Assembly: GCA_964549305.1 (NCBI GenBank)
Contig: CAZJVM010000051.1
Location: 1 to 17,442, forward strand
Source of the DNA: an uncultured bacterium
GTDB taxonomy: Bacteria > Schekmanbacteria > GWA2-38-11 > J061
DNA: 17,442 bases
Reading direction: 5' to 3'
Part shown: piece after piece, positions 4,193-16,640 of the stretch
Numbering within the stretch: the first letter of the stretch is position 1
Layout: every line of letters begins with the position of its first letter
Made by a program: the position numbers and the translations under genes
Notes under the pieces: generated by a model
Databases searched by the model: none
What the model saw: only the letters and a program-made list of their open reading frames with translations
Told to the model about the DNA's origin: nothing

Positions 4193-6190
4193 TTACTTTT
4201 TTTTGCGTTTCTTTTTAAATAACTTTTTAGATATCTTAACCTTATCTGCATCGTGAATGGTACTGTTTCCTGAAGTGTCAACATCTTCAAGCTTATAGTA
4301 ATAAGTGTTTCCTGTTTTTACTTTTCTGTCGGGATATTTGTATTTTGCGCCTGAAACAGCATTCTTCTTTGCCTTTATAAATTTGCTTATCCTTATGAAC
4401 TCTCCATTTTCCGATTCGCTTCTCAATATATAAAAACCGAAATTATCGACCTCAGTTGCAGTCTTCCACTTAACAATAACTTTACTGCGTTTCTGTTTTA
4501 CTATAAATTTCGAAAGCTCGATATAAGTGGGGTCAGTCAAATTAAGACGTCCCGAACCGTAAATATTGTCTTTTCCTGTATTTCCCATATCGATGGCAGT
4601 TGCTTCGAGAAATGCCTGCACGAGGTCTGCCGTATATGAAGGGAACCGGTCAAAAACAAGTGCCGCCGCGCCTGCAACAGTAGGAGACGCGGCTGAAGTT
4701 CCAAACCAATGTCCGTATGTAAAGCTGTCAACATTATCGGTGCCCATTATATCCGGTTTTGTCCTCGGTACCGCGCCGCTCCAGTTTGTCGTAGGTCCCT
4801 GCGAGCTGAAGGACTCCTGAGGTCCCGTTGTCCACTTAGTGCTGTCAATTGCGCCTACGGTAAGAACTCCCGCGGCATCCGCGGGCTGCATTAAACTGCT
4901 CGAGAGAGTTCTGTGCTCCAGAGTCTGTCTGAAAGTAAAAAGCTTCATATCGCTGTTTCTCGTAGTGGCAAAATTATAGATTCCTATCTTGTAATTTCCT
5001 CCCGAAGTGGGAGTATAGCTCAATCCTTCAACAGGAGGTGTGCCCGGCGCGCCTCCCTGCCAGGCTTCCGATGATGCAACCTGAGTGGTGCCGTCGGAGG
5101 CAAAGAGGAAAAGGTCATAATCCTGGTCCGATGCGGGGTTGTTCGAGTCAGGACCCCAGTCATCCCAGCTTAAAAAGATGCTTGCAGTCTGTCCTCCGGA
5201 AATGAAAATATCATTCAGTTCGTCTATTGGAGAAGTCGTAAACTCATGCCAGCCGTCAGCGTCTGTGGATGTAAAAACTCCCTGATAATGTTTACCGCCT
5301 TCGTTTCCCGCGGCATTCACCCAAAGAACTCCGTTTGCGCGCGCGCCGTTCGCTATATCGCAAATTGGACCCGTGCCATTGTATGGGCCTGTGTTAACCC
5401 AGCCTACGGAATGGTTTATTACATTGACGCCATAAGTTATTACGGCATCGTTTACGGCATTTGCCAAATCTATTTCATCGGCGATTTTCAAAAGATAGAG
5501 TTGCGCGTCAGGAGCCATATCGTTTACAGACTCGGAAACGGCAGTTCCGTGGACTGTGCCGGTTTCAAGCCCTGCTCCCGTATAATCCTTAGTAACAACA
5601 CCTGCCGGCAGGTCTCCGTTTGTAATCGTCGCGGTGAGATTGTTAAACCCCAGGTCAATTACGGCAACTTTTGTCCCCGCGCCTGTATGGCTCGATGTAT
5701 GCCACACATCTGCGCCCGTCAAGGCGACTCCCTCGCTTGTTACAATCTCGTGCGGCGTAAACGGAAGCCGTATATTGAGCACCCCCGGCAATGCCACTGC
5801 AATTGCCGCAAGAGAGGAAACAGGGGCATAACCCCTTATTAAGTTGTTATACTTTTTGCCTACGGTTACTCCAAATGTCGCAAGCTGTGATGCAATCGAT
5901 GTGTTTGCGGAATCAGTTACAAATACAACTCTGGCATTCCCGTTGACAAAATCTATTCCGTTTTGCTGGGCAAAACCTTCCGCGGCAGACATACCACCTA
6001 TCTGCTTCTTATTAATCAGATTGTTTAACACGCCGGCTATTTTCGGATGACCTTTTTTTCCTGTAATGTCGTTTATATCATCACCGGCAAGTACAACGGG
6101 AAGCATTAAAAAAGATGTGATGAAAAAACAGAGAAAAAAAGTTGCGGCACAAACAAATATCTTTCTCGAAAAGGATTTTTCAGTTTTCAT
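4193..6190 (-). CDS. Secreted S8 (subtilisin-like) serine peptidase with C-terminal Ig-like domain and Lys-rich tail
   Basis: Catalytic Asp in VAVIDLGF, His in HGTAVSE, oxyanion Asn in NAAGNEG, Ser in FGTSAASPTVAGAAAL, plus KPDIMG and YGSGRL. Signal peptide ends ...PVVLA. The start is probably ATG 6190 with GGAG RBS; the ORF track uses GTG 6205. Confidence 0.95.
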   Translation of the reverse strand: MKTEKSFSRKIFVCAATFFLCFFITSFLMLPVVLAGDDINDITGKKGHPKIAGVLNNLINKKQIGGMSAAEGFAQQNGIDFVNGNARVVFVTDSANTSIASQLATFGVTVGKKYNNLIRGYAPVSSLAAIAVALPGVLNIRLPFTPHEIVTSEGVALTGADVWHTSSHTGAGTKVAVIDLGFNNLTATITNGDLPAGVVTKDYTGAGLETGTVHGTAVSESVNDMAPDAQLYLLKIADEIDLANAVNDAVITYGVNVINHSVGWVNTGPYNGTGPICDIANGARANGVLWVNAAGNEGGKHYQGVFTSTDADGWHEFTTSPIDELNDIFISGGQTASIFLSWDDWGPDSNNPASDQDYDLFLFASDGTTQVASSEAWQGGAPGTPPVEGLSYTPTSGGNYKIGIYNFATTRNSDMKLFTFRQTLEHRTLSSSLMQPADAAGVLTVGAIDSTKWTTGPQESFSSQGPTTNWSGAVPRTKPDIMGTDNVDSFTYGHWFGTSAASPTVAGAAALVFDRFPSYTADLVQAFLEATAIDMGNTGKDNIYGSGRLNLTDPTYIELSKFIVKQKRSKVIVKWKTATEVDNFGFYILRSESENGEFIRISKFIKAKKNAVSGAKYKYPDRKVKTGNTYYYKLEDVDTSGNSTIHDADKVKISKKLFKKKRKKK

Positions 6191-6631: not shown

Positions 6632-7456
6632 TTAAACTTGAACTCCAAATGTACCTTTCAGTCCGAAAGCGGAAACAATTGACAGTACAAAAAAGACAAT
6701 AAGCCAGTGGATTTCAACACCCCAAAAAGTGAGTTTCATCTCGGGATAATCAACTCTGATTTCCAAAACTTTTGATTCGGAAGGAAACGGGCTTTCCGCG
6801 GGAGTGAGAAGCAACTGCTCTAAATTAACTTTGTCGCGTGTCGCCCCCACTCTGCCAAGCGTTTTACCTGCTGATAATATTTTCGTATATGCTGTGCCGT
6901 TAACATTGAAAGTCAATTCATAATTGCCGCTCTTCTCTACAAGCACTCTCCAGTCGATTTCATTTTCATCTTCGATTGTAAGAGTTGGGGCATCGAGTTT
7001 GACTCCCTGAGGCAGTTTCATTTCGATATTTGCATCAGCAACCGAAACTCCCTTGTCGAGTTTCAGGCATACAACTGCCTTTTCACCCTCGTTCAGGGGT
7101 CTGTAGGCGTATCTGCTGTCAAGCTGTACGAGAATGAAAATAACCGGAACAATCATTACAAGCATCGGGGTAACCGAATAGCGCATATAGGTAAGGTTCG
7201 TCCTCAATATCTTCTTCTGCGATTTAAGCATCTGCTGAAGATCATGATTGAAGAGACGTACCTCGAGAAGGTATCCCTTTATCTTTTCCTTCGCGCTCTT
7301 TATACCGTCCTGGTTGGATGTGTAGCGAAATATTATAAGCATAGCAACACCTGTTACGAGAGACACGACAGATATACCCCACGCAGGCGCCATATTCTTG
7401 AAAGGCGCAAAGATAAGGTCAAAAATTGTGTTCAAAATATTTACCAGTGAAATCAT
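6632..7456 (-). CDS. Membrane protein resembling the DUF106/EMC3/TMCO1 (Oxa1-superfamily) family, with an inserted soluble beta-domain
   Basis: Architecture: amphipathic N-helix (LNTIFDLIFAPF), TM1 (WGISVVSLVTGVAMLIIF), charged helical hairpin (NQDGIKSAKEKIK...QKKILRTNL), TM2 with PMLVMIVP, an insert of roughly 130 aa, and TM3 (HWLIVFFVLSIVSAFGL). Confidence 0.65.
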   Translation of the reverse strand: MISLVNILNTIFDLIFAPFKNMAPAWGISVVSLVTGVAMLIIFRYTSNQDGIKSAKEKIKGYLLEVRLFNHDLQQMLKSQKKILRTNLTYMRYSVTPMLVMIVPVIFILVQLDSRYAYRPLNEGEKAVVCLKLDKGVSVADANIEMKLPQGVKLDAPTLTIEDENEIDWRVLVEKSGNYELTFNVNGTAYTKILSAGKTLGRVGATRDKVNLEQLLLTPAESPFPSESKVLEIRVDYPEMKLTFWGVEIHWLIVFFVLSIVSAFGLKGTFGVQV

Positions 7457-7489
7457 TTATCTTCTCAATTCCTTACTCTATGGCGTTAT

Positions 7490-7690
7490 TTAAGAAATAT
7501 ATCCCAAACCCTGAAGTTTTTTCTTTATATCTTCTTCCGAGTCAGAGTCAGACTCCTCAAGTTTTGCGATTTCCTTCTCAATTGTATGGGTAATAAATTC
7601 TTCCGCTGAAGAATAACCTGCAATATCCGCGTATTTTTTCACTTTTGCCAACAAATCCTTATCAAGCTTAATTTTCGATCCGCCAAACAT
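7490..7690 (-). CDS. Small RHH-like protein with C-terminal LxxLGY motif
   Basis: Strong RBS GGAGG. KIKLDKDLLAKVKKYADIAGYSSAEEFITHTIEKE fits a strand-helix-helix pattern. The tail is EEDIKKKLQGLGYIS. Confidence 0.8.
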   Translation of the reverse strand: MFGGSKIKLDKDLLAKVKKYADIAGYSSAEEFITHTIEKEIAKLEESDSDSEEDIKKKLQGLGYIS

Positions 7691-7715
7691 TTTTCATCCT
7701 CCCTGCGATAACAGG

Positions 7716-9695
7716 TTAAAAAATATTGCTTCCAACCATTTCTTTTTTCTTTTCAAATCCGAATTCCGCCAGAAGTGTAGGCGCAATGTCATAAAGAGCC
7801 GGATTTTCTTTCACAATTTTTTTATTGGAAAGGATAATACCCGGCACTTCTTCAGGTGCCATACAGTGGTCTCCGCTCCATTCTTCCATATTATTCGTAA
7901 CCAATTCCTTTGGAAACTTGCCGAGACTCGCTTCCCACGATATCCTGTATTCGCGTGCAAAGCCTAAAAGAATATCAGGAGCATCTTTAACATAAGGGCC
8001 TGAATAGATATCCTCTCTCCTGTAAACCTTTTTAAATACTTTTTTCCCCGTTTTTGCGTCAACAACATTTTCAAGTTTCTCAACAAGCTCATTAACAAGC
8101 TTATCACGCTCTGCGCCGGGTGATACTATGCCGTTTGCCTCTCTGCCGGCAAGGTTGATGTAAAGCCCGTTTAATCCGAGCACATAGGCCTTTGTCCTGC
8201 TCCAGTCTACATTTGCAAACAACTCTTCCTCTCCCTGTTTAGAAGGGTCGATAAGAGTTACATATCCGTTATTCAAAAGCCACGTGTTGATGTTATATGA
8301 ATAATAGAATGGAGCAAAACCGTGGTCGGACATTACGATAAGCGTTGTGTCATCATCAAGTCTTTCTAAAGTATAAGCAAGCACTTCATCCATCTCCTCA
8401 TAGACCTTCTCGAGGACATCGCCGTATTTGTCAAAGGATTCCTGATTGAAAGCGGGATGGTTTTTGTCGTGCTGGCGCCAAAACATATGGGCATTCTGGT
8501 CAGTGCTGGAAAAATAATAGAAAAGAACTCCGCTTTTAAATTGGGAAAGAAGATATCTGTATCCCCTCACTTCCTCTTCGTGGACAAGAGTAATCTGCTT
8601 GATGAATTCACCGTCATCAAATATTCCGCTTGTAAGCGCCTTGGTGTCTTCAGGCATTCCCTGCGTGTAGAAATATCCCACATTGTCGAAAAGCTCTTTT
8701 GAAAAATCGTCAGGCGTGGAAATAGGAAGCGCCGGGTCCTCGGGATTTATGTTTATCGGTGTTATATAAAGTTTAAAATCAGGATGAGCTTCCTTGAGAT
8801 AGATACGGCATATCCCTGAAACTCCCTGTATATAGGGAATAAGGTCAAAATCAATCCGAATCCATTTACTCCATTCACCTTCCTTTAGAAAAATCTCCTC
8901 ATCGGGAAGGACTATCTTCGCCACAGGATTTTCAGGATCTATATGGACAGTAAAATCAACTGTGCTGTCAGGCACGTCTTTTTTGAAAGTGTTTTTCGGA
9001 CCGTATATTTTTGCTTTGACTGTGTTTCTCTTGACATATACTTCGTAAAATTTTCCGCCTGATATTTCGCCGTTTTCCATTTCAGGTTCAACATTGGAAT
9101 AATATGAAAAAGTGCCGTATGTACCGAGCATATCAGGAGTTCCCATTCCGGAAAGTGTTTTGGCTTCGCTTTCAACAGGAGGAAAATTCGATGGAATCAT
9201 ATAGACTGTACAAGGAACGCCCTTTTTCTGAAGAATTTCCCAAAATGAATCTCCGTGCCTTAAAAGCTCGACCTTACCCGACTCAAGAGGAATTACCCAG
9301 TCGCCTATGGTAAAAGTCTTTCCTCCTCCCGTGGTGCGCGATGTGGAAAGATATGGAAAAAGAGTTTTAGGGTCACGATGGACAAAATCGAAAATGCCGT
9401 GTCCTCCGGGATTCATTCCCGTAATGAAATTCGACCACGCGACGGGAGACTGCGGGGGGTTTGATGTCTGCAAATTCTTGAATGTACCTTCCGATGCAAG
9501 CTTTACAAAAGTAGGCATTCTTCCCTCATCCATCATTTTACCGAGAATTTGAGGGTCCATGCCGTCAAATCCCAGTATGAGCACTTTTTTCTTTGTAGCA
9601 ACTGCCTGCTTATCTGAACAACCCGGAGTAAAAACAACAGATGTCATTAGCACGGCAAATACTAATAAGCTCAATATTTTTCCTGTCTTATTCAA
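7716..9695 (-). CDS. AlkP-superfamily (NPP/COG3379-like) protein #4, probable lipoprotein
   Basis: Motifs LGFDG, PPQSPVAW (putative Ser nucleophile), HGIFDF, TDQNAH, SDHG and WSGDH. The N-terminal hydrophobic signal ends in TPG-C26, an atypical lipobox. TTG start. Confidence 0.9.
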   Translation of the reverse strand: MNKTGKILSLLVFAVLMTSVVFTPGCSDKQAVATKKKVLILGFDGMDPQILGKMMDEGRMPTFVKLASEGTFKNLQTSNPPQSPVAWSNFITGMNPGGHGIFDFVHRDPKTLFPYLSTSRTTGGGKTFTIGDWVIPLESGKVELLRHGDSFWEILQKKGVPCTVYMIPSNFPPVESEAKTLSGMGTPDMLGTYGTFSYYSNVEPEMENGEISGGKFYEVYVKRNTVKAKIYGPKNTFKKDVPDSTVDFTVHIDPENPVAKIVLPDEEIFLKEGEWSKWIRIDFDLIPYIQGVSGICRIYLKEAHPDFKLYITPININPEDPALPISTPDDFSKELFDNVGYFYTQGMPEDTKALTSGIFDDGEFIKQITLVHEEEVRGYRYLLSQFKSGVLFYYFSSTDQNAHMFWRQHDKNHPAFNQESFDKYGDVLEKVYEEMDEVLAYTLERLDDDTTLIVMSDHGFAPFYYSYNINTWLLNNGYVTLIDPSKQGEEELFANVDWSRTKAYVLGLNGLYINLAGREANGIVSPGAERDKLVNELVEKLENVVDAKTGKKVFKKVYRREDIYSGPYVKDAPDILLGFAREYRISWEASLGKFPKELVTNNMEEWSGDHCMAPEEVPGIILSNKKIVKENPALYDIAPTLLAEFGFEKKKEMVGSNIF

Positions 9696-9719
9696 ACTTT
9701 GTCTGCCTCTTTTACAATT

Positions 9720-11855
9720 TTAAAAATTATTAATCAGCGGTTTGCCCTGCATATATGCCGGTATGTCTATTCCGTAAAGCTTAAGCACCGTAGGACCTAT
9801 GTCCATTATGGAAGGCGCTTCGGCGTCAACCTTTTTATTGCTGAAAAGAATTCCCGGCGCGCATCTCGGGTCAATGCAGTGGTCTCCGCTCCAACTCTTC
9901 GTGTTGTCCTCTATAACCTTGTCCGTGCATTTACCCACTGCCGCTTCCCACGATGTCCTGTAACCTACATTGAATCCGATGAAAAGGTCAGGTCCGTTTC
10001 CGGCATAAGGCCCGCTGAAAAGCTCCGCATTGTCAAAAAGTTTGTTAATCGCAATCTCATCACATTCTTCATCTTTAAAATGATCAAGTTTCTCTGACAA
10101 TTCTTTTTTGAGATTTTCATATTCTTCCCCCGGTTCCACAATCCCCTGTCCTTCTCTTCCCTTGAGGTTTATATACACTCCACCAAGGCCAAATGTGTAT
10201 GCCTTTGTCTTTGACCAGTCAACATCCTGAAACCATTCTCCGCCTGTTCCTGAATTCTTGAAATGCATATAGCCATTTTCATAAAACCATGTATTTAAAT
10301 TCACACATCTTCTGAAAGATTTAAACCCGTGGTCTGAGATTACCATCAATACATCCTTCTCACCCACCTTTTCAATTGTCTTTCCCACAAGTTCATCCAT
10401 CTTCCTGTACATATCTTCGATGGAGTTTTTGTGTTTCTCCGTATCCTTGTCCCTGTTTGCGGGATGTTTATCATCTATATAGCGGAAAAACATATGCTGT
10501 ATTCTGTCTGAGGTATCAAAAACGCAGGCAACCATTCCCTTTTGAGTCTTATCGATGGCATTGAAAAACATATCTTCTCTCTCTTCCTGATGCTTGTATG
10601 CCTGTCCCAGGAATGCCTCTTCGTCAATCACCCTTTCATTAAGCGCCCATGTATCCTCGGCAAGTCCCAGTGTCGCGTAACGTCCCTGCATCTTAGAAAG
10701 ATATACCGAATAGAAAAGCGGATGAGAGATAGGCATTGCCGGGTTATCGGGGTCGATATTTATCGGTGTTATGTAAAAATTAAATTCCGGTGAAACAGAC
10801 CTAAGAAGAAAACGGCATATGCCCTGCACCTTTATTCCGAGACCTGCACTGAATACAACGGGTGTCCATCCCGTATATTCGCCCTTTTTAAGCTTGATTG
10901 TTTCATCGGGAAGTTTCAGGGTTGCTTCATTGTCATTGATTATTTCAACAGTAAAAGGAATCCTCATTTCCCCGCCTTCCTTAAGGAGAGAATTTTCAGG
11001 ACCCTTGATATGACTCTTGACGATATTTCCGTTCTTTTCCACCAGAACGCGGACACCGCCTGTATGCTTGCCCACTGAATTCTTGTCGGTTGTGTAGAAG
11101 GTAAAGGACCCCTGCGTTCCCTTCAGGTCAGGCACGCACATTCCGGAAATAGAAACGCCGTTGAATTTCTCCGGCGGAAAGGTAATGGGCACCCGAAGCG
11201 CCGAGCTGAATAAATGGTTATCTCCCAATATTTTCCAGAATGGCTGGCTTTTCCTTAAAAGCGTAATCTCCGGTTTTCCTATGGGAACGTTGTATTTCCC
11301 GAGCTTAATAGTCCTTTTCGCGTTACCAATGTGTACAGAAGAAATATCGGGCAGATATGTCCTTACATCCCTTTTTAAAAAATCAAAAATATTATGCCTT
11401 GACGGGTCAACTCCCGTAATGAAAGATGACCAGGCAACGGGCGACATTGCCGGATATGTTGTTCTCAGAGGCGAAAATGAACCTTCTTCTTTCAACTTTG
11501 AAAAATTGGGGAGTTTCCCCTCGTTCATATATTTTGTGGCAAGAGCGGGGTCAAGTCCGTCAAGTCCCAGCACAATCACTTTCTCCGTATCTGTTTTTAC
11601 TCCGCTTCTTTTCTTTATGAATGTCCTTATGATAAACCTCACAGGCCAGGCAAGAATAGAAAGGAACGCGAGAAGAAAAGTTACGAAGAGGACGAAAAAG
11701 CTTGAAATAAAAGCAAATCCCGCACCGGGTCCTATATAGGCATCTGCATTTGACGCAAATGAAAAAATTAGAATGCCGAACACAGCAACTCTGAAAAAGG
11801 AGTCCGAAGCAAATCTATATTTCAAACTTTTTTTAATCTGCAAAATTATTTTCAC
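9720..11855 (-). CDS. AlkP-superfamily (NPP/COG3379-like) protein #3, membrane-anchored
   Basis: Motifs LGLDG, PAMSPVAW, HNIFDF, SDRIQH, SDHG and WSGDH. The N-terminus is signal-like, ends in ADA, and is followed by YIGPGAG, a TM helix and a basic stretch. GTG start is uncertain. Confidence 0.9.
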   Translation of the reverse strand: MKIILQIKKSLKYRFASDSFFRVAVFGILIFSFASNADAYIGPGAGFAFISSFFVLFVTFLLAFLSILAWPVRFIIRTFIKKRSGVKTDTEKVIVLGLDGLDPALATKYMNEGKLPNFSKLKEEGSFSPLRTTYPAMSPVAWSSFITGVDPSRHNIFDFLKRDVRTYLPDISSVHIGNAKRTIKLGKYNVPIGKPEITLLRKSQPFWKILGDNHLFSSALRVPITFPPEKFNGVSISGMCVPDLKGTQGSFTFYTTDKNSVGKHTGGVRVLVEKNGNIVKSHIKGPENSLLKEGGEMRIPFTVEIINDNEATLKLPDETIKLKKGEYTGWTPVVFSAGLGIKVQGICRFLLRSVSPEFNFYITPINIDPDNPAMPISHPLFYSVYLSKMQGRYATLGLAEDTWALNERVIDEEAFLGQAYKHQEEREDMFFNAIDKTQKGMVACVFDTSDRIQHMFFRYIDDKHPANRDKDTEKHKNSIEDMYRKMDELVGKTIEKVGEKDVLMVISDHGFKSFRRCVNLNTWFYENGYMHFKNSGTGGEWFQDVDWSKTKAYTFGLGGVYINLKGREGQGIVEPGEEYENLKKELSEKLDHFKDEECDEIAINKLFDNAELFSGPYAGNGPDLFIGFNVGYRTSWEAAVGKCTDKVIEDNTKSWSGDHCIDPRCAPGILFSNKKVDAEAPSIMDIGPTVLKLYGIDIPAYMQGKPLINNF

Positions 11856-11861
11856 TAACCG

Positions 11862-13169
11862 TTAATATGTTTTTAAAATAATATCGGAAACATCGGTGAT
11901 ATGCATATCGTCCTTCTCTTTGCCGAATGACCAGAAAAAAGCGTCATCCCAGGTATGCATTCCGCATAAAACGGTACGGCCGAAAAGCTCCTTCTTCTTG
12001 ACCGACCCCTTGAGGTCAAATCCCCGATTGGAAAGAACTACCATATCAGGAGCATTGTCAAAACAGGAACCGCTGTAAATATCCTCTTTAAAAAAAACCT
12101 TATCTACAACCTTCTTGCCGTTATATTCCAAAGTCTCCAGTTTTCCCTTTATCTGTGAGCGAATCGCATCGCCTTCACCCTTGTCAACGGTACCGCGAGG
12201 GTATTTATCTCTGTAGTTAATGTAAATTCTGCCGGGGTCAAGAATAAATGCCTTCGTATCATCGGAAATATCCGCGACCGTATCAGGTGAATCTTTTTTA
12301 TAACTTATGATGCCTTCCTTTTCAAGGAAATTGTTCAGATAAACCTCCTGCTCTATTCCCGTGAATCCGTGGTCTGAAAGGAGTATGAACTGATTTCCGC
12401 TTTCACCGTCTCCCGCAATATCGAGAAACCGTCCGTACACATCTTTAACAAAGCTGTCAACAGCATTATAGTAATCGAGGAATGCCTGATGATATTTATG
12501 ATTAGTATCCACAAGCGCATCCCACAAAAAATGCTGAAGGCGGTCGGTACTTGTCACTATAAGCTCGAAATAATCCCAGTCCTGAGTTTTCCAGAAAAGG
12601 TCAAGTGCCTTTTTTCTTCCCTCGAGCGTGGAGTAAAGTTCCTTAATAAGAAAATCGTGGTCTTCACGCGCTTTCATTGTATCCACATCTATTTTGTATC
12701 CCAGTCCTTCAAGCTGTGAAATTACGGCAAGGGGATAAACTGCTTTCTTGATGTTAATCGCGACAAAACCCGAAACCATAACTCCGTTCATCGGTCTTGC
12801 GGGATATGTTGACGGCTGATTTACCACAACACTTCTTTTGCCGTCTGCTTTGAGCTTATCCCATATTGTGGGCGCCTTCAGGTCGGAATACTGCGGAAAA
12901 ACCATATCATAAGTGCCGGGATTTAAATCCATAAAGCCGAAAATGCCATGCTCCGCGGGATTTACTCCCGTCATAAAAGAGGACCAGCTTACCGATGAAA
13001 TCTCGGGAAGCGTCACCTTCATCTGCTGAAGATTCCCCTCACCTCTAAGCTTTGACATAAAGGGCATAACCCCTTCATCGGCAAATTGTTGAATGAGTGA
13101 GTAAGGCGAACCGTCAAGCCCTATTACGCAGCACCTTTTCTTCTTCTTTTTCTTAAAAAAGAAAGCCAA
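11862..13169 (-). CDS. AlkP-superfamily (NPP/COG3379-like) protein #2, no signal peptide
   Basis: Motifs IGLDG, PEISSVSW, HGIFGF, TDRLQH, SDHG and GMH. TTG start with GGGAGG RBS. Confidence 0.9.
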   Translation of the reverse strand: MAFFFKKKKKKRCCVIGLDGSPYSLIQQFADEGVMPFMSKLRGEGNLQQMKVTLPEISSVSWSSFMTGVNPAEHGIFGFMDLNPGTYDMVFPQYSDLKAPTIWDKLKADGKRSVVVNQPSTYPARPMNGVMVSGFVAINIKKAVYPLAVISQLEGLGYKIDVDTMKAREDHDFLIKELYSTLEGRKKALDLFWKTQDWDYFELIVTSTDRLQHFLWDALVDTNHKYHQAFLDYYNAVDSFVKDVYGRFLDIAGDGESGNQFILLSDHGFTGIEQEVYLNNFLEKEGIISYKKDSPDTVADISDDTKAFILDPGRIYINYRDKYPRGTVDKGEGDAIRSQIKGKLETLEYNGKKVVDKVFFKEDIYSGSCFDNAPDMVVLSNRGFDLKGSVKKKELFGRTVLCGMHTWDDAFFWSFGKEKDDMHITDVSDIILKTY

Positions 13170-13185
13170 CGAAAAATCCTCCCTT

Positions 13186-13785
13186 TTAAATGTAACCGAG
13201 GTCTTTTAGTCTCTGCTTTACTTCATCTTCCTCGTCGTCTGAATACTCCGATTCCCCTGTTTCAGGAATGAGCTTCATTAATTCGAGAGTCCTGATAATT
13301 TTCTTAACGCTTTCTTCTTCTGATTCCTTTGAAGTGTCAACTACAACTTCGGCATTTTCCGGCTCTTCATAGGGGTCATCGACACCGGTGAAGTTTTTTA
13401 TTTCGCCTTTAATCGCTTTCGCATAAAGCCCTTTCACATCTCTTTCGGTCAATGTTTCAAGAGGGCATTTGCAGTAAATTTCAACATAGTCCTTGATCAT
13501 CTGGCGGTTTTCGTCTCTTACTGCCGTGTAGGGAGAAATTGCCGCGGCAATCGCAACGACGCCGTTTCTTGTGAGAAGGTTGCACACAAAACCGATGCGC
13601 CGGATGTTGATGTCCCTGTCTTCCTTTGAAAATCCAAGTCCCTTGCTGAGGTTTGTCCTTACGATATCGGCATCTAATACTTCAACCTTCGCTCCCCTCT
13701 CAAGGAGAATAGCTTCAACTTCTCTTGCAAGCGTGGTTTTTCCCGAACCCGAAAGCCCCGTAAACCAAAGTGTAAATCCTTTCAT
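13186..13785 (-). CDS. cysC: Adenylyl-sulfate (APS) kinase with C-terminal LxxLGY extension
   Basis: WFTGLSGSGKTT P-loop, LGFSKEDRDINIRRIG, ISPY and RDVKGLYAKA...FTGVDDPYEEP. Confidence 0.97.
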   Translation of the reverse strand: MKGFTLWFTGLSGSGKTTLAREVEAILLERGAKVEVLDADIVRTNLSKGLGFSKEDRDINIRRIGFVCNLLTRNGVVAIAAAISPYTAVRDENRQMIKDYVEIYCKCPLETLTERDVKGLYAKAIKGEIKNFTGVDDPYEEPENAEVVVDTSKESEEESVKKIIRTLELMKLIPETGESEYSDDEEDEVKQRLKDLGYI

Positions 13786-13814
13786 TATTTTTCCTCCGAT
13801 TTTTCAGATTTTTT

Positions 13815-15191
13815 TTAAATAATTGGCTTGCCTATCATATTTTCAGGGATATCTATCCCATAAAATTTCAAAATGGAAGGTGCAATGTCATAAATCGAAA
13901 CATCCCTTTCCTTTTCAGTCCATTCCCTGCCCGGTATTTTCCACACGAAAATTCCTTCCTGCGCGTGGTTTGCGTCATCGGGACCCGTGTCGTTTTCATA
14001 GATGTGAATACAGCCCGTGCCAACTGAGCCCGCCGAGCGCCAGTCAAGGTTTCCCGGATAAAGAATCAGGTCGGGCGCTATGTTGTTGCATTCTTTATAA
14101 ACATCCTCAGGCCTGAAAACACGGTTATTAATCGACTTACCGTTTTCATCAGTCATCGCTTCAAGTTTTGCAATAAGCTGAGTCCTGAAAGATTCATATT
14201 CCTCGGAAGGAATAACTCCCTGCGGTTCGCGTCCCTTTACATTGAAGAATATTCTCGAATAGTAACCGCCTTCACCCCAGCAGCTTGTCTTCTCCCAGTC
14301 AATCATATCCATTTTAAGCTTCGTCTGTTTTGCGGGCTTTTCCTTGAGAGTGAGAAACCCTTCCCGCTGAAACCACTCATTGATGCAGATAGCGCCGTGC
14401 ATTGTCTTTGCGCCGTGGTCGGAAACGAGAATAACCGATGTATCTTCGCCTATTACTTTCAGCGTTTCGCCTATTTCCCTGTCAATTTCTTTGTAATAAT
14501 CCTTTATGGCGTTTTCATACTTGTTTCCCGGCTCGTAAAGACGGTGTTCCTTGTCAAAGTATCTCCAGAATCCGTGATGAATCCTGTCGATTCCCATCTC
14601 GACCATCATGGCAAAATCAAAATCCTTTTGCACAAAATGCCTGAATGCCTTGAAACGGCTTTCCGTCATTTCATATATTGCCTTTAAAAGTTTATCCTTG
14701 TCGTCAGTTCTGAAATCATCGACATCTATTATGTAATTGCCGCCTGCCGCGCTGTCCACTTCCGCCTTTACCTCATCGGGCCACGTATATTGGGCATCCT
14801 TGTTGGGAGTGAGGAAGCTTGCCACAAGCATACCGTTGAGGGGCTTGGGAGGGTAAGTCTGAGGCACTCCGAAAACAAGCGAACTCATACGGTTTCTTGA
14901 AAGATAATTCCAAAGTGTCTTTGCCTTGACATAATTCGCGTTTGCAAAATAGAGGTCATCGTATCCGTAGGACTTTCTGTTTCTGAAACCGTAAAACCCC
15001 AGCATTCCCGGATCCTGCGATGTCATCATTGCAGTCCAGGCGGGCACTGTAATGGGCGGAATTGTGGAAACCATCTTTCCGTGCATTCCTTCGTCCACAA
15101 TCGACTTGATATTGGGAAGCTCATCGAGCCAGTCGCCGAAAACCAACTGAGGCGTTGCACAGTCAAGGCCAATAATAACTAATTTTGCCAT
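13815..15191 (-). CDS. AlkP-superfamily (NPP/COG3379-like) protein #1, cytoplasmic
   Basis: Motifs IGLDCA, STIPPITVPAW (putative Thr nucleophile), LGFYGFRNR, IDRIHH, SDHG and DTGPDDANH. No signal peptide; GAGG RBS. Confidence 0.9.
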   Translation of the reverse strand: MAKLVIIGLDCATPQLVFGDWLDELPNIKSIVDEGMHGKMVSTIPPITVPAWTAMMTSQDPGMLGFYGFRNRKSYGYDDLYFANANYVKAKTLWNYLSRNRMSSLVFGVPQTYPPKPLNGMLVASFLTPNKDAQYTWPDEVKAEVDSAAGGNYIIDVDDFRTDDKDKLLKAIYEMTESRFKAFRHFVQKDFDFAMMVEMGIDRIHHGFWRYFDKEHRLYEPGNKYENAIKDYYKEIDREIGETLKVIGEDTSVILVSDHGAKTMHGAICINEWFQREGFLTLKEKPAKQTKLKMDMIDWEKTSCWGEGGYYSRIFFNVKGREPQGVIPSEEYESFRTQLIAKLEAMTDENGKSINNRVFRPEDVYKECNNIAPDLILYPGNLDWRSAGSVGTGCIHIYENDTGPDDANHAQEGIFVWKIPGREWTEKERDVSIYDIAPSILKFYGIDIPENMIGKPII

Positions 15192-15209
15192 AATTAACCT
15201 CTCTCCCTA

Positions 15210-16352
15210 TTAAGAATTTTTCATACTTTTAACAAGAACTTCTGCAACCTCAGGTCTTGTAAATTCTGCCGGCGGTTTTTCTCCTGCTCTTAACATTTCT
15301 CTCACCTTTGTGCCACTCAAGAAAACGTGGTCTTCATTGGAATGAGGGCAGGTTTTCGTGGATGCCATGTTGCCGCACTTTGTGCAGAAAAAGGCATGTT
15401 CAAAGAAGAGAGGCGTAATGTCAATCTCCTCAGGGCTGAAATCATTGAAAATCAGCTGAGCGTCATAAGTGCCGTAGTAGTTGCCTACGCCTGCGTGGTC
15501 ACGACCGACTATAAAATGCGTGCATCCGTAATTTTTCCTCACAATGGCGTGAAATATCGCCTCGGAAGGTCCTGCATAGCGCATTGCCGCGGGAAATACC
15601 GAAATTGCCACCCTGTCATCGGGATAATAGTTTTTGAGCAGGGTTTCGTAACATTCCCAGCGCACTTCTCCGGAAATATCATCACCTTTCGTTGCACCCA
15701 TAAGAGGATGAATGAGCAGGGCATCAACTATTTCCAGAGCGCATTTCTGAAGATATTCGTGAGCCCTGTGAATTGGATTTCTTGTCTGAAATGCCGTTAT
15801 AGTCTTCCATCCTTTTTCCTCGAAAAGCTTTCTCGTCTGCGCGGGCTCGAGGCGAAATTCGTGAAAATCAGCGTGATTCGGCTTTTCAAGCAAGGTTATC
15901 TTTCCGCCTATATATGAGTCGCCGATTGAATCGAGATAGGCAACACCGGGATGCGCCTTATCGGTTGTCCTTAAAACGGCCTGCGCCTCCTTCTCCTTGT
16001 CAAAAGAAAACTTGTCCTCAACTTCCATTATGGCAAGGGGTTTTCCGTTTTCGCAAAGAGCAACTTCCGTGCCGGTTTGTATATCGTCTCCGTCCTTTGC
16101 CGAAAGCACCACGGGGATTGTCCAAACAGGCCCCGTTGACAGATGCCTGTCACTGATTATGGAATTGTAATCCTTTGATGTCATAAAGCCTTCAAGAGGG
16201 CTCAATGCGCCTGTGGCAATCATTTCGAGGTCGCTTGTTTCCCTTTCGTTAAGGGCAATCTTTTTCAGTCCCTGCGCCTTCTCTTTCAAATTGTCCACAT
16301 TGCTGTTATCGGCAACCCTGTTAATCAGCGTGCCGCCATGAGGTTTAATCAT
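15210..16352 (-). CDS. sat: Sulfate adenylyltransferase (ATP sulfurylase, Sat type)
   Basis: PHGGTL, SPLEGFM, AFQTRNPIHRAHE, MRYAGP, RKNYGCTHFIVGRDHAGVG, Zn-site CTKC...CPH and SGTKVR. Confidence 0.98.
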   Translation of the reverse strand: MIKPHGGTLINRVADNSNVDNLKEKAQGLKKIALNERETSDLEMIATGALSPLEGFMTSKDYNSIISDRHLSTGPVWTIPVVLSAKDGDDIQTGTEVALCENGKPLAIMEVEDKFSFDKEKEAQAVLRTTDKAHPGVAYLDSIGDSYIGGKITLLEKPNHADFHEFRLEPAQTRKLFEEKGWKTITAFQTRNPIHRAHEYLQKCALEIVDALLIHPLMGATKGDDISGEVRWECYETLLKNYYPDDRVAISVFPAAMRYAGPSEAIFHAIVRKNYGCTHFIVGRDHAGVGNYYGTYDAQLIFNDFSPEEIDITPLFFEHAFFCTKCGNMASTKTCPHSNEDHVFLSGTKVREMLRAGEKPPAEFTRPEVAEVLVKSMKNS

Positions 16353-16380
16353 TCTATCTTCTCCCAGGTTTAAAAATGGT

Positions 16381-16593
16381 TTATAGGTAACCGAGATTTT
16401 TAAGTTTTCTCTTTATCTTTTTCAACTCGTCAGGTTGAAGCGCGTCATCTTCGGTGCTTATTCCGGCATCGCTGACCATATCCCTGAGGACATAAACGAT
16501 GAAATCTGTTGGGGAATTAAAACCGGAGTCCGCAATCAACTGCCGAATTTTGCTATAAAGCACGCGCGGAATTTTAATAGTAACTTTATCCAT
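16381..16593 (-). CDS. CopG/ribbon-helix-helix family protein with C-terminal LxxLGY motif
   Basis: VTIKIPRVLYSKIRQLIADSGFNSPTDFIVYVLRD is an RHH pattern, and the tail is ELKKIKRKLKNLGYL. The start is probably ATG 16593; the ORF track uses GTG 16605. Confidence 0.85.
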   Translation of the reverse strand: MDKVTIKIPRVLYSKIRQLIADSGFNSPTDFIVYVLRDMVSDAGISTEDDALQPDELKKIKRKLKNLGYL

Positions 16594-16602
16594 AAAAATA
16601 TA

Positions 16603-16640
16603 CACTCTTATAGGAGTTTTATAGCACTCTTATAAGAGTG
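16603..16640. promoter_or_regulatory. Tandem palindromic operator (2 x 16 bp, 22-bp period)
   Basis: A perfect palindrome CACTCTTATAAGAGTG at 16625-16640 and a 14/16 copy CACTCTTATAGGAGTT at 16603-16618. Confidence 0.75.

Follow-up and report, generated by a model that had tools for sequence, protein, structure and literature searches.

We analysed a 17,442-nt stretch of DNA from an uncultured bacterium of the Schekmanbacteria (GenBank assembly GCA_964549305.1, contig CAZJVM010000051.1; this whole stretch is called the window below), in which nine co-oriented genes, separated by gaps of 6-33 nt, are found according to the open reading frame (ORF) listing and to Pfam and NCBIfam scans. From first to last, these genes encode a putative ribbon-helix-helix (RHH) protein, the ATP sulfurylase Sat, a protein of the alkaline phosphatase superfamily (AlkP1), the adenosine 5′-phosphosulfate (APS) kinase CysC, three further proteins of the same superfamily (AlkP2, AlkP3 and AlkP4), a small RHH-like protein and a membrane protein related to DUF106 (Table 1). 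A first-pass annotation of this DNA had described nine tightly packed, co-oriented genes and had seen neither cysH nor a P-loop sulfotransferase gene in the window. We arrive at the same gene set, and among the window genes there is likewise no cysH, sulfite reductase or P-loop sulfotransferase gene, nor any gene of the DHH or PHP families. The nine genes are not clustered by chance, as their order is repeated in unrelated contigs. They are the full bacterial form of a widespread sulfate-activation module.

Table 1. Genes and control elements of the nine-gene array, with positions in the window
Feature	Position	Strand	Properties
Putative RHH protein (CopG/Arc/MetJ-like)	16593-16381	minus	70 aa; ATG start, alternative GTG at 16605
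Sat, ATP sulfurylase	16352-15210	minus	380 aa; PF01747, PUA_2, NF003166
AlkP1	15191-13815	minus	458 aa; PF01663; Thr48 nucleophile; predicted cytosolic
CysC, APS kinase	13785-13186	minus	199 aa; PF01583, NF002059
AlkP2	13169-11862	minus	435 aa; PF01663; Ser nucleophile; predicted cytosolic
AlkP3	11855-9720	minus	711 aa; PF01663; insert of ~200 aa; one transmembrane helix
AlkP4	9695-7716	minus	659 aa; PF01663; same insert as AlkP3; N-terminal signal/lipoprotein-like segment
Small RHH-like protein	7690-7490	minus	66 aa; LGY tail
DUF106/Ylp1-type membrane protein	7456-6632	minus	274 aa; Oxa1/YidC superfamily
Promoter-like site and two operator-like palindromes	16657-16601	minus	upstream of the RHH gene; from sequence reading and repeat search

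The two enzymes of sulfate activation are readily recognized. Sat matches PF01747 (E 4.5e-101) and PUA_2 (E 1.5e-50) and scores 564.6 bits with NF003166, against a cut-off of 387, which places it in the ATP sulfurylase family; its translation contains HRAH and GRDHAG, which we take to be the defining motifs of ATP sulfurylases (HxxH and GRD). CysC matches PF01583 (E 1.1e-60) and scores 261.7 bits with NF002059 (cut-off 244), and thus belongs to the APS kinase family. Outside the family models, CysC carries a C-terminal extension of ~27 aa, consisting of an acidic linker and a tail with the residues LGY. None of the solved APS kinases among the matches listed (three alignments) extends beyond the kinase domain.

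All four AlkP proteins match PF01663 above threshold (E 5.4e-44, 6.7e-38, 7.7e-30 and 3.2e-36 for AlkP1 to AlkP4). The first-pass annotation had stated that they keep the metal-ligand motifs of the superfamily and have Ser or Thr, rather than a CxPxR formylglycine motif, at the nucleophile position. This holds when the four are aligned with orthologues (20 rows). The six metal ligands D10, D202, H206, D258, H259 and H409 (AlkP1 numbering) do not vary. As nucleophile AlkP1 has Thr (TVPAW), and AlkP2 (SSVSW), AlkP3 (SPVAW) and AlkP4 (SPVAW) have Ser; CxPxR occurs in none of the four. The Pfam Sulfatase model (PF00884), with a cut-off of 25 bits, gives 15.8 for AlkP1 and 15.7 for AlkP4 and has no listed match in AlkP2 and AlkP3. 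We could therefore dismiss the idea that these are formylglycine sulfatases, given a Thr or Ser outside any P-x-R context and sub-threshold PF00884 scores. By their sequence family, the four proteins are assigned to the nucleotide pyrophosphatase/phosphodiesterase (NPP), or type I phosphodiesterase, clade (PF01663), with the fold compared for AlkP1 only.

The AlphaFold model of AlkP1 (pLDDT 80.8, pTM 0.83) has ENPP6, Xanthomonas NPP and PhnA as its nearest folds in the PDB, at 12-15% identity (Foldseek E 2e-15 to 1e-12), and a narrow AlkP1 profile has no match among PDB sequences at E <=0.001. AlkP1 shares its fold, a six-ligand two-metal site and a Thr nucleophile with NPPs (Xanthomonas NPP, PDB 2gsn, and ENPP1, ENPP3, ENPP5 and ENPP6) and with PhnA. 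However, its identity to NPPs is low, and it is predicted to be cytosolic, whereas NPPs are secreted. Residues 60-90 form a loop that is highly conserved and modelled with low confidence. AlkP1 is the most conserved AlkP protein of the module: among the matches listed, its homologues are 67-84% identical and are labelled by their sources as Schekmanbacteria, Eisenbacteria, Poribacteria, Hydrogenedentota, Abyssubacteria and Planctomycetota. This conservation equals that of Sat and CysC. We regard AlkP1 as a candidate enzyme for the handling of 3′-phosphoadenosine 5′-phosphosulfate (PAPS).

The four paralogues differ in their predicted location. AlkP1 and AlkP2 have no transmembrane (TM) segment and no hydrophobic N-terminus, and AlkP2 follows CysC in 16 of the metagenome loci described below. 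The N-terminus of AlkP3 comprises a signal-like segment, the motif A-Y-[IV]-G-P-G-A-G-F-A, a single TM helix and a basic stretch; in AlkP3 orthologues this motif is strongly conserved between the signal-like segment and the TM helix. The positive-inside rule, applied by eye, predicts a membrane-bound AlkP3 whose catalytic domain faces the cytoplasm. AlkP4 and its orthologues start with a basic residue and a hydrophobic segment right before the first catalytic strand, which suggests that AlkP4 is exported and extracytoplasmic. The module thus appears to put similar AlkP enzymes on both sides of the inner membrane, beside a protein of the Oxa1 superfamily. In the proposed transfer of a Thr or Ser adduct to an envelope acceptor, and in having paralogues at the membrane, the module resembles LtaS, EptA, OpgB and the glycosylphosphatidylinositol (GPI) ethanolamine-phosphate transferases, but AlkP1 and AlkP2 differ from LtaS, EptA and OpgB in being soluble and cytosolic. 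Enzymes of the LtaS/EptA/OpgB type work outside the cytoplasm with lipid head groups as donors, and their N-terminal domains are multi-TM. The four AlkP proteins are not members of this type: TM segments are lacking in AlkP1 and AlkP2, one or two hydrophobic segments stand at the N-termini of AlkP3 and AlkP4, and the family matched is PF01663 and not PF00884.

To see the array in other organisms, we scanned metagenome contigs with the AlkP1 alignment, which gave 80 loci (numbered with the prefix L), and mapped the nine proteins onto them by tblastn. AlkP1 is at least 58% identical in 25 of the 80, and in 22 of these 25 it has Sat and/or CysC beside it. Where the flank is long enough, Sat or CysC is present in 15/15 and both are present in 12/15 of these closer loci, and the median gaps are 49 and 44 nt. 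Among the 55 loci with AlkP1 at 50-57% identity, 23 have Sat and/or CysC (13/34 where the flank suffices). The order RHH-Sat-AlkP1-CysC-AlkP2-AlkP3-AlkP4-small RHH-DUF106 is found, whole or as two sub-operons, in L001, L010/L011, L025, L027 and L050. Variants include fusions of Sat and AlkP1 in a single open frame of 863 aa (L030:4999-7587 and L038:1107-3695), clusters that keep RHH-AlkP1-CysC without Sat (L007 and L050) and a minimal cluster without glycan genes (L014).

A comparable arrangement has been described in archaea. In Jin et al. (2021, PMC8268124), a Pyrococcus yayanosii cluster (pych_17520-17560), with counterparts in other archaea, consists of copG, sat, a gene for a DHH-family phosphatase of adenosine 3′,5′-bisphosphate (pAp), termed pApase, a type I phosphodiesterase/NPP gene and cysC. 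That text speculates that the phosphodiesterase degrades pyrophosphate (PPi), deals experimentally with the pApase alone, and reports that neither a sulfotransferase nor an enzyme converting sulfite to sulfide was identifiable in P. yayanosii (PMC8268124). Our array is likened to this cluster by gene order and not by protein sequence: a CopG/RHH gene comes first, and is followed by ATP sulfurylase, an NPP-type phosphodiesterase and APS kinase. It has four of the five archaeal gene types in the same order, the DHH pApase being absent from the window. Relative to the archaeal cluster, it also has three extra AlkP proteins, a second RHH-like protein and a DUF106-type protein.

Several of the bacterial variants contain a further gene of interest. 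A PHP-family gene (PF02811, E 1.1e-11) lies right after AlkP1 in L033 and L041, in the order Sat-AlkP1-PHP, and one short ORF later in L039 and L045. We assume that the PHP family of these clusters is a pAp phosphatase. Because the variants hold this gene, and the archaeal core holds a characterized DHH pApase, it is implied that something in or near the module would consume PAPS and leave pAp.

These phosphatases bear on one explanation of the AlkP proteins, in which they are ordinary NPP-type phosphodiesterases that act on the nucleotides of the pathway, either as a safety valve for APS and PAPS or, by hydrolysing pAp, as an analogue of CysQ, and so control nucleotide pools with no transfer of sulfate. 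The fold and active site of AlkP1 are indeed NPP-like (ENPP6, Xanthomonas NPP, ENPP1/3), with metal ligands and Thr kept, mammalian NPPs hydrolyse PAPS, and the strict tie to genomes with CysC (see below) would suit any activity directed at PAPS or pAp. However, the PHP-family genes (L033, L041, L039 and L045; presumed pAp phosphatases) and the archaeal DHH pApase share the clusters with the AlkP genes, and the present genome encodes elsewhere an Inositol_P-family protein and a PHP homologue (contig C119), both possible pAp phosphatases. Hydrolysis of APS or PAPS straight after synthesis would moreover be a costly futile cycle, and four paralogues, one of them predicted to be periplasmic, are hard to justify for pool control. 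We therefore consider this explanation quite unlikely. The more specific proposal that AlkP1 is itself the pAp phosphatase was set aside, since these clusters also contain dedicated enzymes of the PHP or DHH families.

We also compared gene content across 151 genomes, one each from ~150 families, with a threshold of E <=1e-80 for AlkP1. AlkP1 is present in 22 of the 151 genomes, CysC in 60, Sat in 56 and CysH (NF002537 over cut-off) in 42, and sulfotransferases of PF13469 and PF00685 occur in 37 and 28. The AlkP1 genomes have CysC in 21/22 cases and Sat in 20/22. Sorted by the two activation enzymes, AlkP1 is found in 20/47 genomes with both, 0/9 with Sat only, 1/13 with CysC only and 1/82 with neither, the last being a genome that is 85% complete. 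The difference between genomes with Sat and CysC and those with Sat only (20/47 vs 0/9, p 0.02) indicates that AlkP1 goes with PAPS synthesis and not with sulfate adenylylation alone. When gene positions were read by eye, AlkP1 was within 2 kb of CysC in 15/21 genomes and of Sat in 14/20. The first-pass annotation had proposed conservation of the linkage between the AlkP genes and sat/cysC as a check of its ideas, and both surveys, of metagenome loci and of genomes, are strongly positive on this point. Thus, it is very likely that the gene set is functionally tied to PAPS synthesis.

A second kind of association comes from a short C-terminal sequence. The RHH protein, CysC and the 66-aa RHH-like protein share a common end, in which an acidic linker is followed by [IV]-K-x-[KR]-L-[KR]-x-L-G-Y-[IL]. 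In the metagenome loci this LGY tail is present on the RHH protein in 19/19 cases, on linked CysC in 31/37 and on the small RHH-like protein in 7/7. It is found on none of the Sat (0/34), AlkP2 (0/17), AlkP3 (0/9), AlkP4 (0/9) and DUF106 (0/6) proteins. Orthologues of AlkP1 bear it in 3/81 cases; two of these loci (L033 and L041) show no CysC, and the third (L063) is a 1.6-kb contig. Among genomes with CysC (the cysC genes of 59 other genomes and of this one), the tail is present on CysC in 15/21 AlkP1-positive and 2/39 AlkP1-negative genomes (Fisher p 1e-7), where a pattern match in one AlkP1-negative genome (G065) was discounted as the normal end of a kinase domain. The LGY tail is thus a hallmark of this system. 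Its co-occurrence with the AlkP genes leads us to infer that it is a docking peptide, which would tie PAPS synthesis and the regulator to the AlkP machinery. A complex prediction with AlkP1, Sat and the CysC tail (residues 165-199), run without controls, gave ipSAE values of 0.27 and 0.12, against a mark of 0.32, and speaks neither for nor against binding.

Within the present genome, 19 of 12,054 ORFs both look real and end in the motif, compared with 1-4 in scrambled controls. These 19 are the three operon proteins, one DUF2061 membrane protein and 15 long paralogues. The DUF2061 protein (100 aa) is encoded on contig C1:75741-76043 (L087:1742-2044), and a tailed homologue with 47% identity lies inside a sulfate/AlkP cluster, between AlkP2 and the DUF106 gene (L018:5583-5876). 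The long paralogues match PF01663 weakly and end in K/R-x-L-G-Y-[ILVM]; the two that were scanned with Pfam belong to the Sulfatase family PF00884. Some of them are located at C1:85650-100476, C3:33671-37056, and C26:632-2683 and 19040-20401. All have signal peptides or multi-TM N-termini, some fit the LtaS/EptA/OpgB pattern, and the short ones have Thr where formylglycine sulfatases have Cys. Tail-bearing PF00884 genes are also seen in the AlkP1 loci L040, L048, L073, L080 and L083, and PF00884 genes without the tail in L059, with a CxPxR formylglycine motif, and in L015. We considered two further roles for the tail. That its tyrosine carries sulfate is not supported, the sole hint being a gene resembling arylsulfate sulfotransferases (ASSTs) beside tail-bearing PF00884 genes on contig C1. 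That the DUF106-like protein is a universal receptor for the tail is not supported either, as this protein is absent from minimal clusters that keep tails.

The distribution of AlkP1 and of the tail can be set against a simpler role in sulfate activation, namely that AlkP1 hydrolyses the PPi released by Sat and thereby pulls the unfavourable sulfurylase reaction, with AlkP2, AlkP3 and AlkP4 as unrelated, co-regulated envelope phosphoesterases. Such a role has been speculated for PYCH_17550 by Jin et al. (PMC8268124), and it would fit the existence of Sat-AlkP1 fusions and the proximity of AlkP1 to Sat in 14/20 genomes. The genome, which has a membrane H+-PPase, contains no soluble pyrophosphatase of PF00719, and this too is in keeping with it. 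On the other hand, AlkP1 is absent from the genomes that have Sat only (p 0.02, see above), L007 and L050 keep RHH-AlkP1-CysC without Sat, and the tail that tracks AlkP1 is on CysC rather than Sat. PPi removal would also leave unexplained the three additional conserved paralogues on both sides of the membrane, as well as the AlkP1-like genes in glycan clusters without sat. Overall, we consider PPi removal unlikely.

The glycan clusters just mentioned contain those of the more distant relatives of AlkP1 (50-57% identity) that have no sat/cysC. In these loci, the AlkP1-like gene sits with genes for a GHMP kinase, a tail-bearing AlkP paralogue, a hexapeptide transferase, glycosyltransferases of families 4 and 2 (GT4 and GT2), a Wzx-type flippase and OEP/HlyD proteins. 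A recurrent string of AlkP1-like protein, GHMP kinase, a 570-aa AlkP paralogue, hexapeptide transferase, GT4, Wzx-type flippase and OEP is seen in L047, L061, L071, L072, L079 and similar loci. The 570-aa paralogue ends in RL-x-ALGY-x-E. The string around the two AlkP genes is mostly without sat and cysC in the same locus, and L047 has both. From their appearance, these loci may be of a soil Acidobacteria type.

Such contexts raise the possibility that the AlkP proteins are transferases or hydrolases of phospho-groups for an envelope polymer (of LtaS/EptA/OpgB or GPI type) with no chemical link to sulfate, and that they are co-expressed with sat and cysC since the polymer is sulfated by another enzyme or since sulfur supply is co-regulated. 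PF01663 also spans the eukaryotic GPI ethanolamine-phosphate transferases. Some of the 15 tail-bearing paralogues of this genome are clustered with genes for GT2, CDP-alcohol transferase and deacetylase, the AlkP1-like genes of glycan clusters lie without sat/cysC, and canonical sulfotransferases are also present in 10/22 AlkP1 genomes, all of which agrees with this possibility. It does not account well for the Sat-AlkP1 fusions, for an AlkP1 gene that lies only tens of nucleotides from sat on one side and cysC on the other, for conservation of AlkP1 equal to that of Sat and CysC, or for the AlkP1-specific tail on CysC, and minimal clusters without glycan genes exist (L014, and the archaeal cluster of PMC8268124). 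All of these point to a direct metabolic link. We thus regard phospho-group transfer without a link to sulfate as improbable.

The fate of activated sulfate in this organism depends on the rest of its genome, which is 2.94 Mb in 169 contigs and is 100% complete by marker genes. Both sat and cysC are single-copy and lie within this operon. No sulfotransferase of PF00685 or PF13469 is encoded in the whole genome, including the nine operon proteins; none of PF03567 is found in the genome either, which is a weak blank, since PF03567 was found in no control genome. However, the first-pass annotation's claim that there is no known consumer of PAPS fails at the level of the genome: a CysH-type phosphoadenylyl-sulfate reductase is encoded on contig C30 (NF002537, 201 bits, cut-off 154), and four small NIR_SIR proteins are encoded as well. 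That annotation had named a linkage to sat/cysC that is not conserved, together with use of PAPS by a separate sulfotransferase or reductase, as what would speak against it; the reductase is there, but the linkage is conserved and a sulfotransferase of PF00685 or PF13469 is absent. The sat and cysC of the operon are the sole copies in the genome and CysH lies elsewhere, and so we infer that the operon must also serve ordinary sulfur assimilation.

The CysH-type gene, whose product has CC...CxxC cysteines, adjoins genes for a DASS-family anion symporter and a universal stress protein (contig C30:10397-13174). The CysH and DASS genes likely form a unit for sulfate uptake and reduction separate from sat and cysC. 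We take the CC...CxxC cysteines to mark the Fe-S-containing type that prefers APS. If this CysH uses APS, the PAPS made by CysC would still be without a known sink.

One other gene of the genome resembles a sulfotransferase gene, and it is the only one of this type seen. It encodes a 464-aa ASST-like protein (PF14269, E 2.5e-26; PF05935, E 2.4e-18; contig C1:82563-83954, minus strand; locus L087:8561-9955). ASSTs are PAPS-independent. Two genes away is one for a tail-bearing PF00884 lipoprotein, and genes for GT2, CDP-alcohol transferase, ThiF and further tail-bearing paralogues are found in the same region.

The remaining three components of the array are the two RHH-type proteins and the membrane protein. 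The first protein has weak family matches, both below threshold (RHH_8, E 0.092; NikR, E 0.077), and more than 7,800 homologues that are named CopG or Arc/MetJ by their sources. Its invariant features are the beta-strand VTxKIP and the tail L-G-Y-L, and it heads the cluster in 19 loci. Upstream of its gene, TTGACA (16657-16652) and TATAAG (16634-16629) are separated by a 17-nt spacer. A perfect 16-bp palindrome with the core ACTC-N6-GAGT (16640-16625) and an imperfect copy (16618-16603), 22 bp apart from centre to centre, overlap this promoter-like site at its -10 region. ACTC-N6-GAGT-like elements are present upstream of most of 18 orthologous RHH genes when read by eye, some of which were also flagged by a palindrome finder. 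Since the tandem palindromes overlap the promoter and recur upstream of orthologous RHH genes, the RHH protein is probably an autorepressor of the operon, and the palindromes its operator. Related elements recur across RHH loci (L001-L066) of very different G+C content. Consensus scans of the window were uninformative for promoters (27 promoter-like sites, compared with 19.2 +/- 5.1 in shuffled sequences) and for terminators (12 terminator-like sites, compared with 10.8 +/- 3.6).

The RHH protein has a paralogue in the 66-aa protein (hhalign probability 97.3%, E 1.6e-11), whose gene always lies directly upstream of the membrane-protein gene. For the 274-aa membrane protein, PF01956 is sub-threshold (13.2 bits, cut-off 27.1; E 0.077). 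Its family profile matches MJ0480 (PDB 5c8j; E 5.6e-12, residues 9-121), and many of its homologues are named ‘DUF106 family’ by JGI. By these profile comparisons, we classify it as a true DUF106 relative. Its model (pLDDT 86.3) has a core of TM1, a cytosolic helical hairpin, TM2 and TM3. The best VIA-align match is chain 8 of 7tut, a multipass-translocon entry (Z 11.7, 136 residues aligned, 3.3 Z units over the next row), and the YidC protein of B. halodurans gives Z 7.8. Chain 8 is presumably TMCO1. An Ig-like beta-sandwich of ~130 aa is inserted between TM2 and TM3, and it is the only part of the model that Foldseek matched. The protein therefore resembles MJ0480/Ylp1 (5c8j) and TMCO1/EMC3 in homology and in its modelled three-TM core with a hairpin, but differs from MJ0480/Ylp1 in being bacterial, in having the Ig-like insert and in always being paired with a tail-bearing RHH-like protein within this operon.

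The dependence of AlkP1 on CysC, the tail on CysC, the Sat-AlkP1 fusions, the companion pAp phosphatases and the relatives in glycan clusters together lead us to favour a PAPS-dependent group transfer that is begun by AlkP1 and aimed at the envelope, a reading to which we give somewhat less than an even chance. It is probable that the operon reflects a way of using activated sulfate at the cell envelope that has not been described before. Sulfuryl transfer is the best candidate role for the AlkP proteins, because in 7/22 AlkP1 genomes CysC is accompanied by neither CysH (NF002537) nor a PF13469 or PF00685 sulfotransferase, and because cluster variants carry a pAp phosphatase, which would clear the product of PAPS consumption.

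Several observations weigh against such a transfer. Known NPP-type enzymes attack phosphorus, not sulfur, and PAPS is cytosolic, hence not directly usable by an AlkP4 that is predicted to be periplasmic. The CysH-type reductase and the NIR_SIR proteins form an ordinary sink for PAPS or APS in this genome, and its pyrophosphatase complement, with H+-PPase and no PF00719 enzyme, leaves room for PPi removal as the role of AlkP1. In the wider sample, 10/22 AlkP1 genomes have CysH and 10/22 have a canonical sulfotransferase. There is no pattern of replacement, and we rejected the notion that AlkP1 substitutes for canonical sulfotransferases. Among genomes with CysC, those with neither CysH nor a sulfotransferase make up 7/21 where AlkP1 is present and 6/39 where it is absent, which is no significant enrichment (p 0.19). 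Finally, 4/22 AlkP1 genomes come from the phylum of the window itself, so the counts are not fully independent.

We know of no member of the AlkP/sulfatase-fold group transferases that transfers a sulfuryl group. Canonical sulfation loci (cysC with sat or cysDN, and Sulfotransfer_1, _2 or _3) are similar in having PAPS genes beside envelope-directed enzymes, with the enzyme gene next to sat or cysC. They are dissimilar in that our operon and genome have no P-loop sulfotransferase, and the folds of AlkP proteins and sulfotransferases have nothing in common. In the literature searched, supplements not covered, we found neither a sulfotransferase with an AlkP fold nor the nine-gene bacterial operon described. 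Sam10, which has been called ‘unprecedented’, shows the fold of canonical sulfotransferases.

The proposed sequence of events is as follows. Sat and CysC, by their family membership, make APS and PAPS, and the CopG-like RHH protein would control the operon by acting on the two promoter palindromes. Part of the activated sulfate may go to the distal CysH and to assimilation, and the four NPP-type AlkP proteins may use a product of Sat and CysC. Most likely, cytosolic AlkP1 would take PAPS at its two-metal/Thr48 site and form a covalent intermediate, from which the sulfuryl group would pass to an acceptor with release of pAp. AlkP2, AlkP3 and AlkP4, together with the DUF106/Ylp1-like protein, could then process the modified intermediate or hand it on to an envelope glycan or lipid. 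The most detailed version of this proposal is that AlkP1 represents a new structural class of PAPS sulfotransferase, with sulfate on Thr; that AlkP2, AlkP3, AlkP4 and the DUF106/Ylp1-like protein relay the sulfate from the cytosol across the inner membrane to a glycan or lipid of the envelope, for example by means of a lipid-linked carrier; and that the LGY tails join the APS kinase, repressor and AlkP proteins in one complex that channels PAPS, with expression sensing the state of the complex. Taken jointly, these elements are possible but doubtful.

The remaining genes of the window encode a C25 peptidase, a PEP-CTERM protein, an S8 peptidase and a DUF3108-like protein. The G+C content of 1-kb windows is ~32-51%, where the upper value (0.508) belongs to positions 5001-6000, inside the S8 peptidase gene, and the other 1-kb windows have 0.32-0.47.

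To our knowledge, every characterized PAPS-dependent sulfotransferase has one P-loop-like fold. Many bacteria and archaea make PAPS without a recognizable enzyme that spends it, the published Pyrococcus case included, and a highly conserved AlkP-fold enzyme, which in many phyla is placed between the enzymes of PAPS synthesis or fused to them, is the obvious candidate for the missing step. If AlkP1 removes pyrophosphate or trims nucleotides, sulfate activation would have a third, conserved component that is missing from textbooks. If AlkP1 transfers sulfate, a class of enzymes would be added, as would a route by which uncultured phyla make sulfated polymers of the envelope and a biocatalyst for sulfation, all three of them new.

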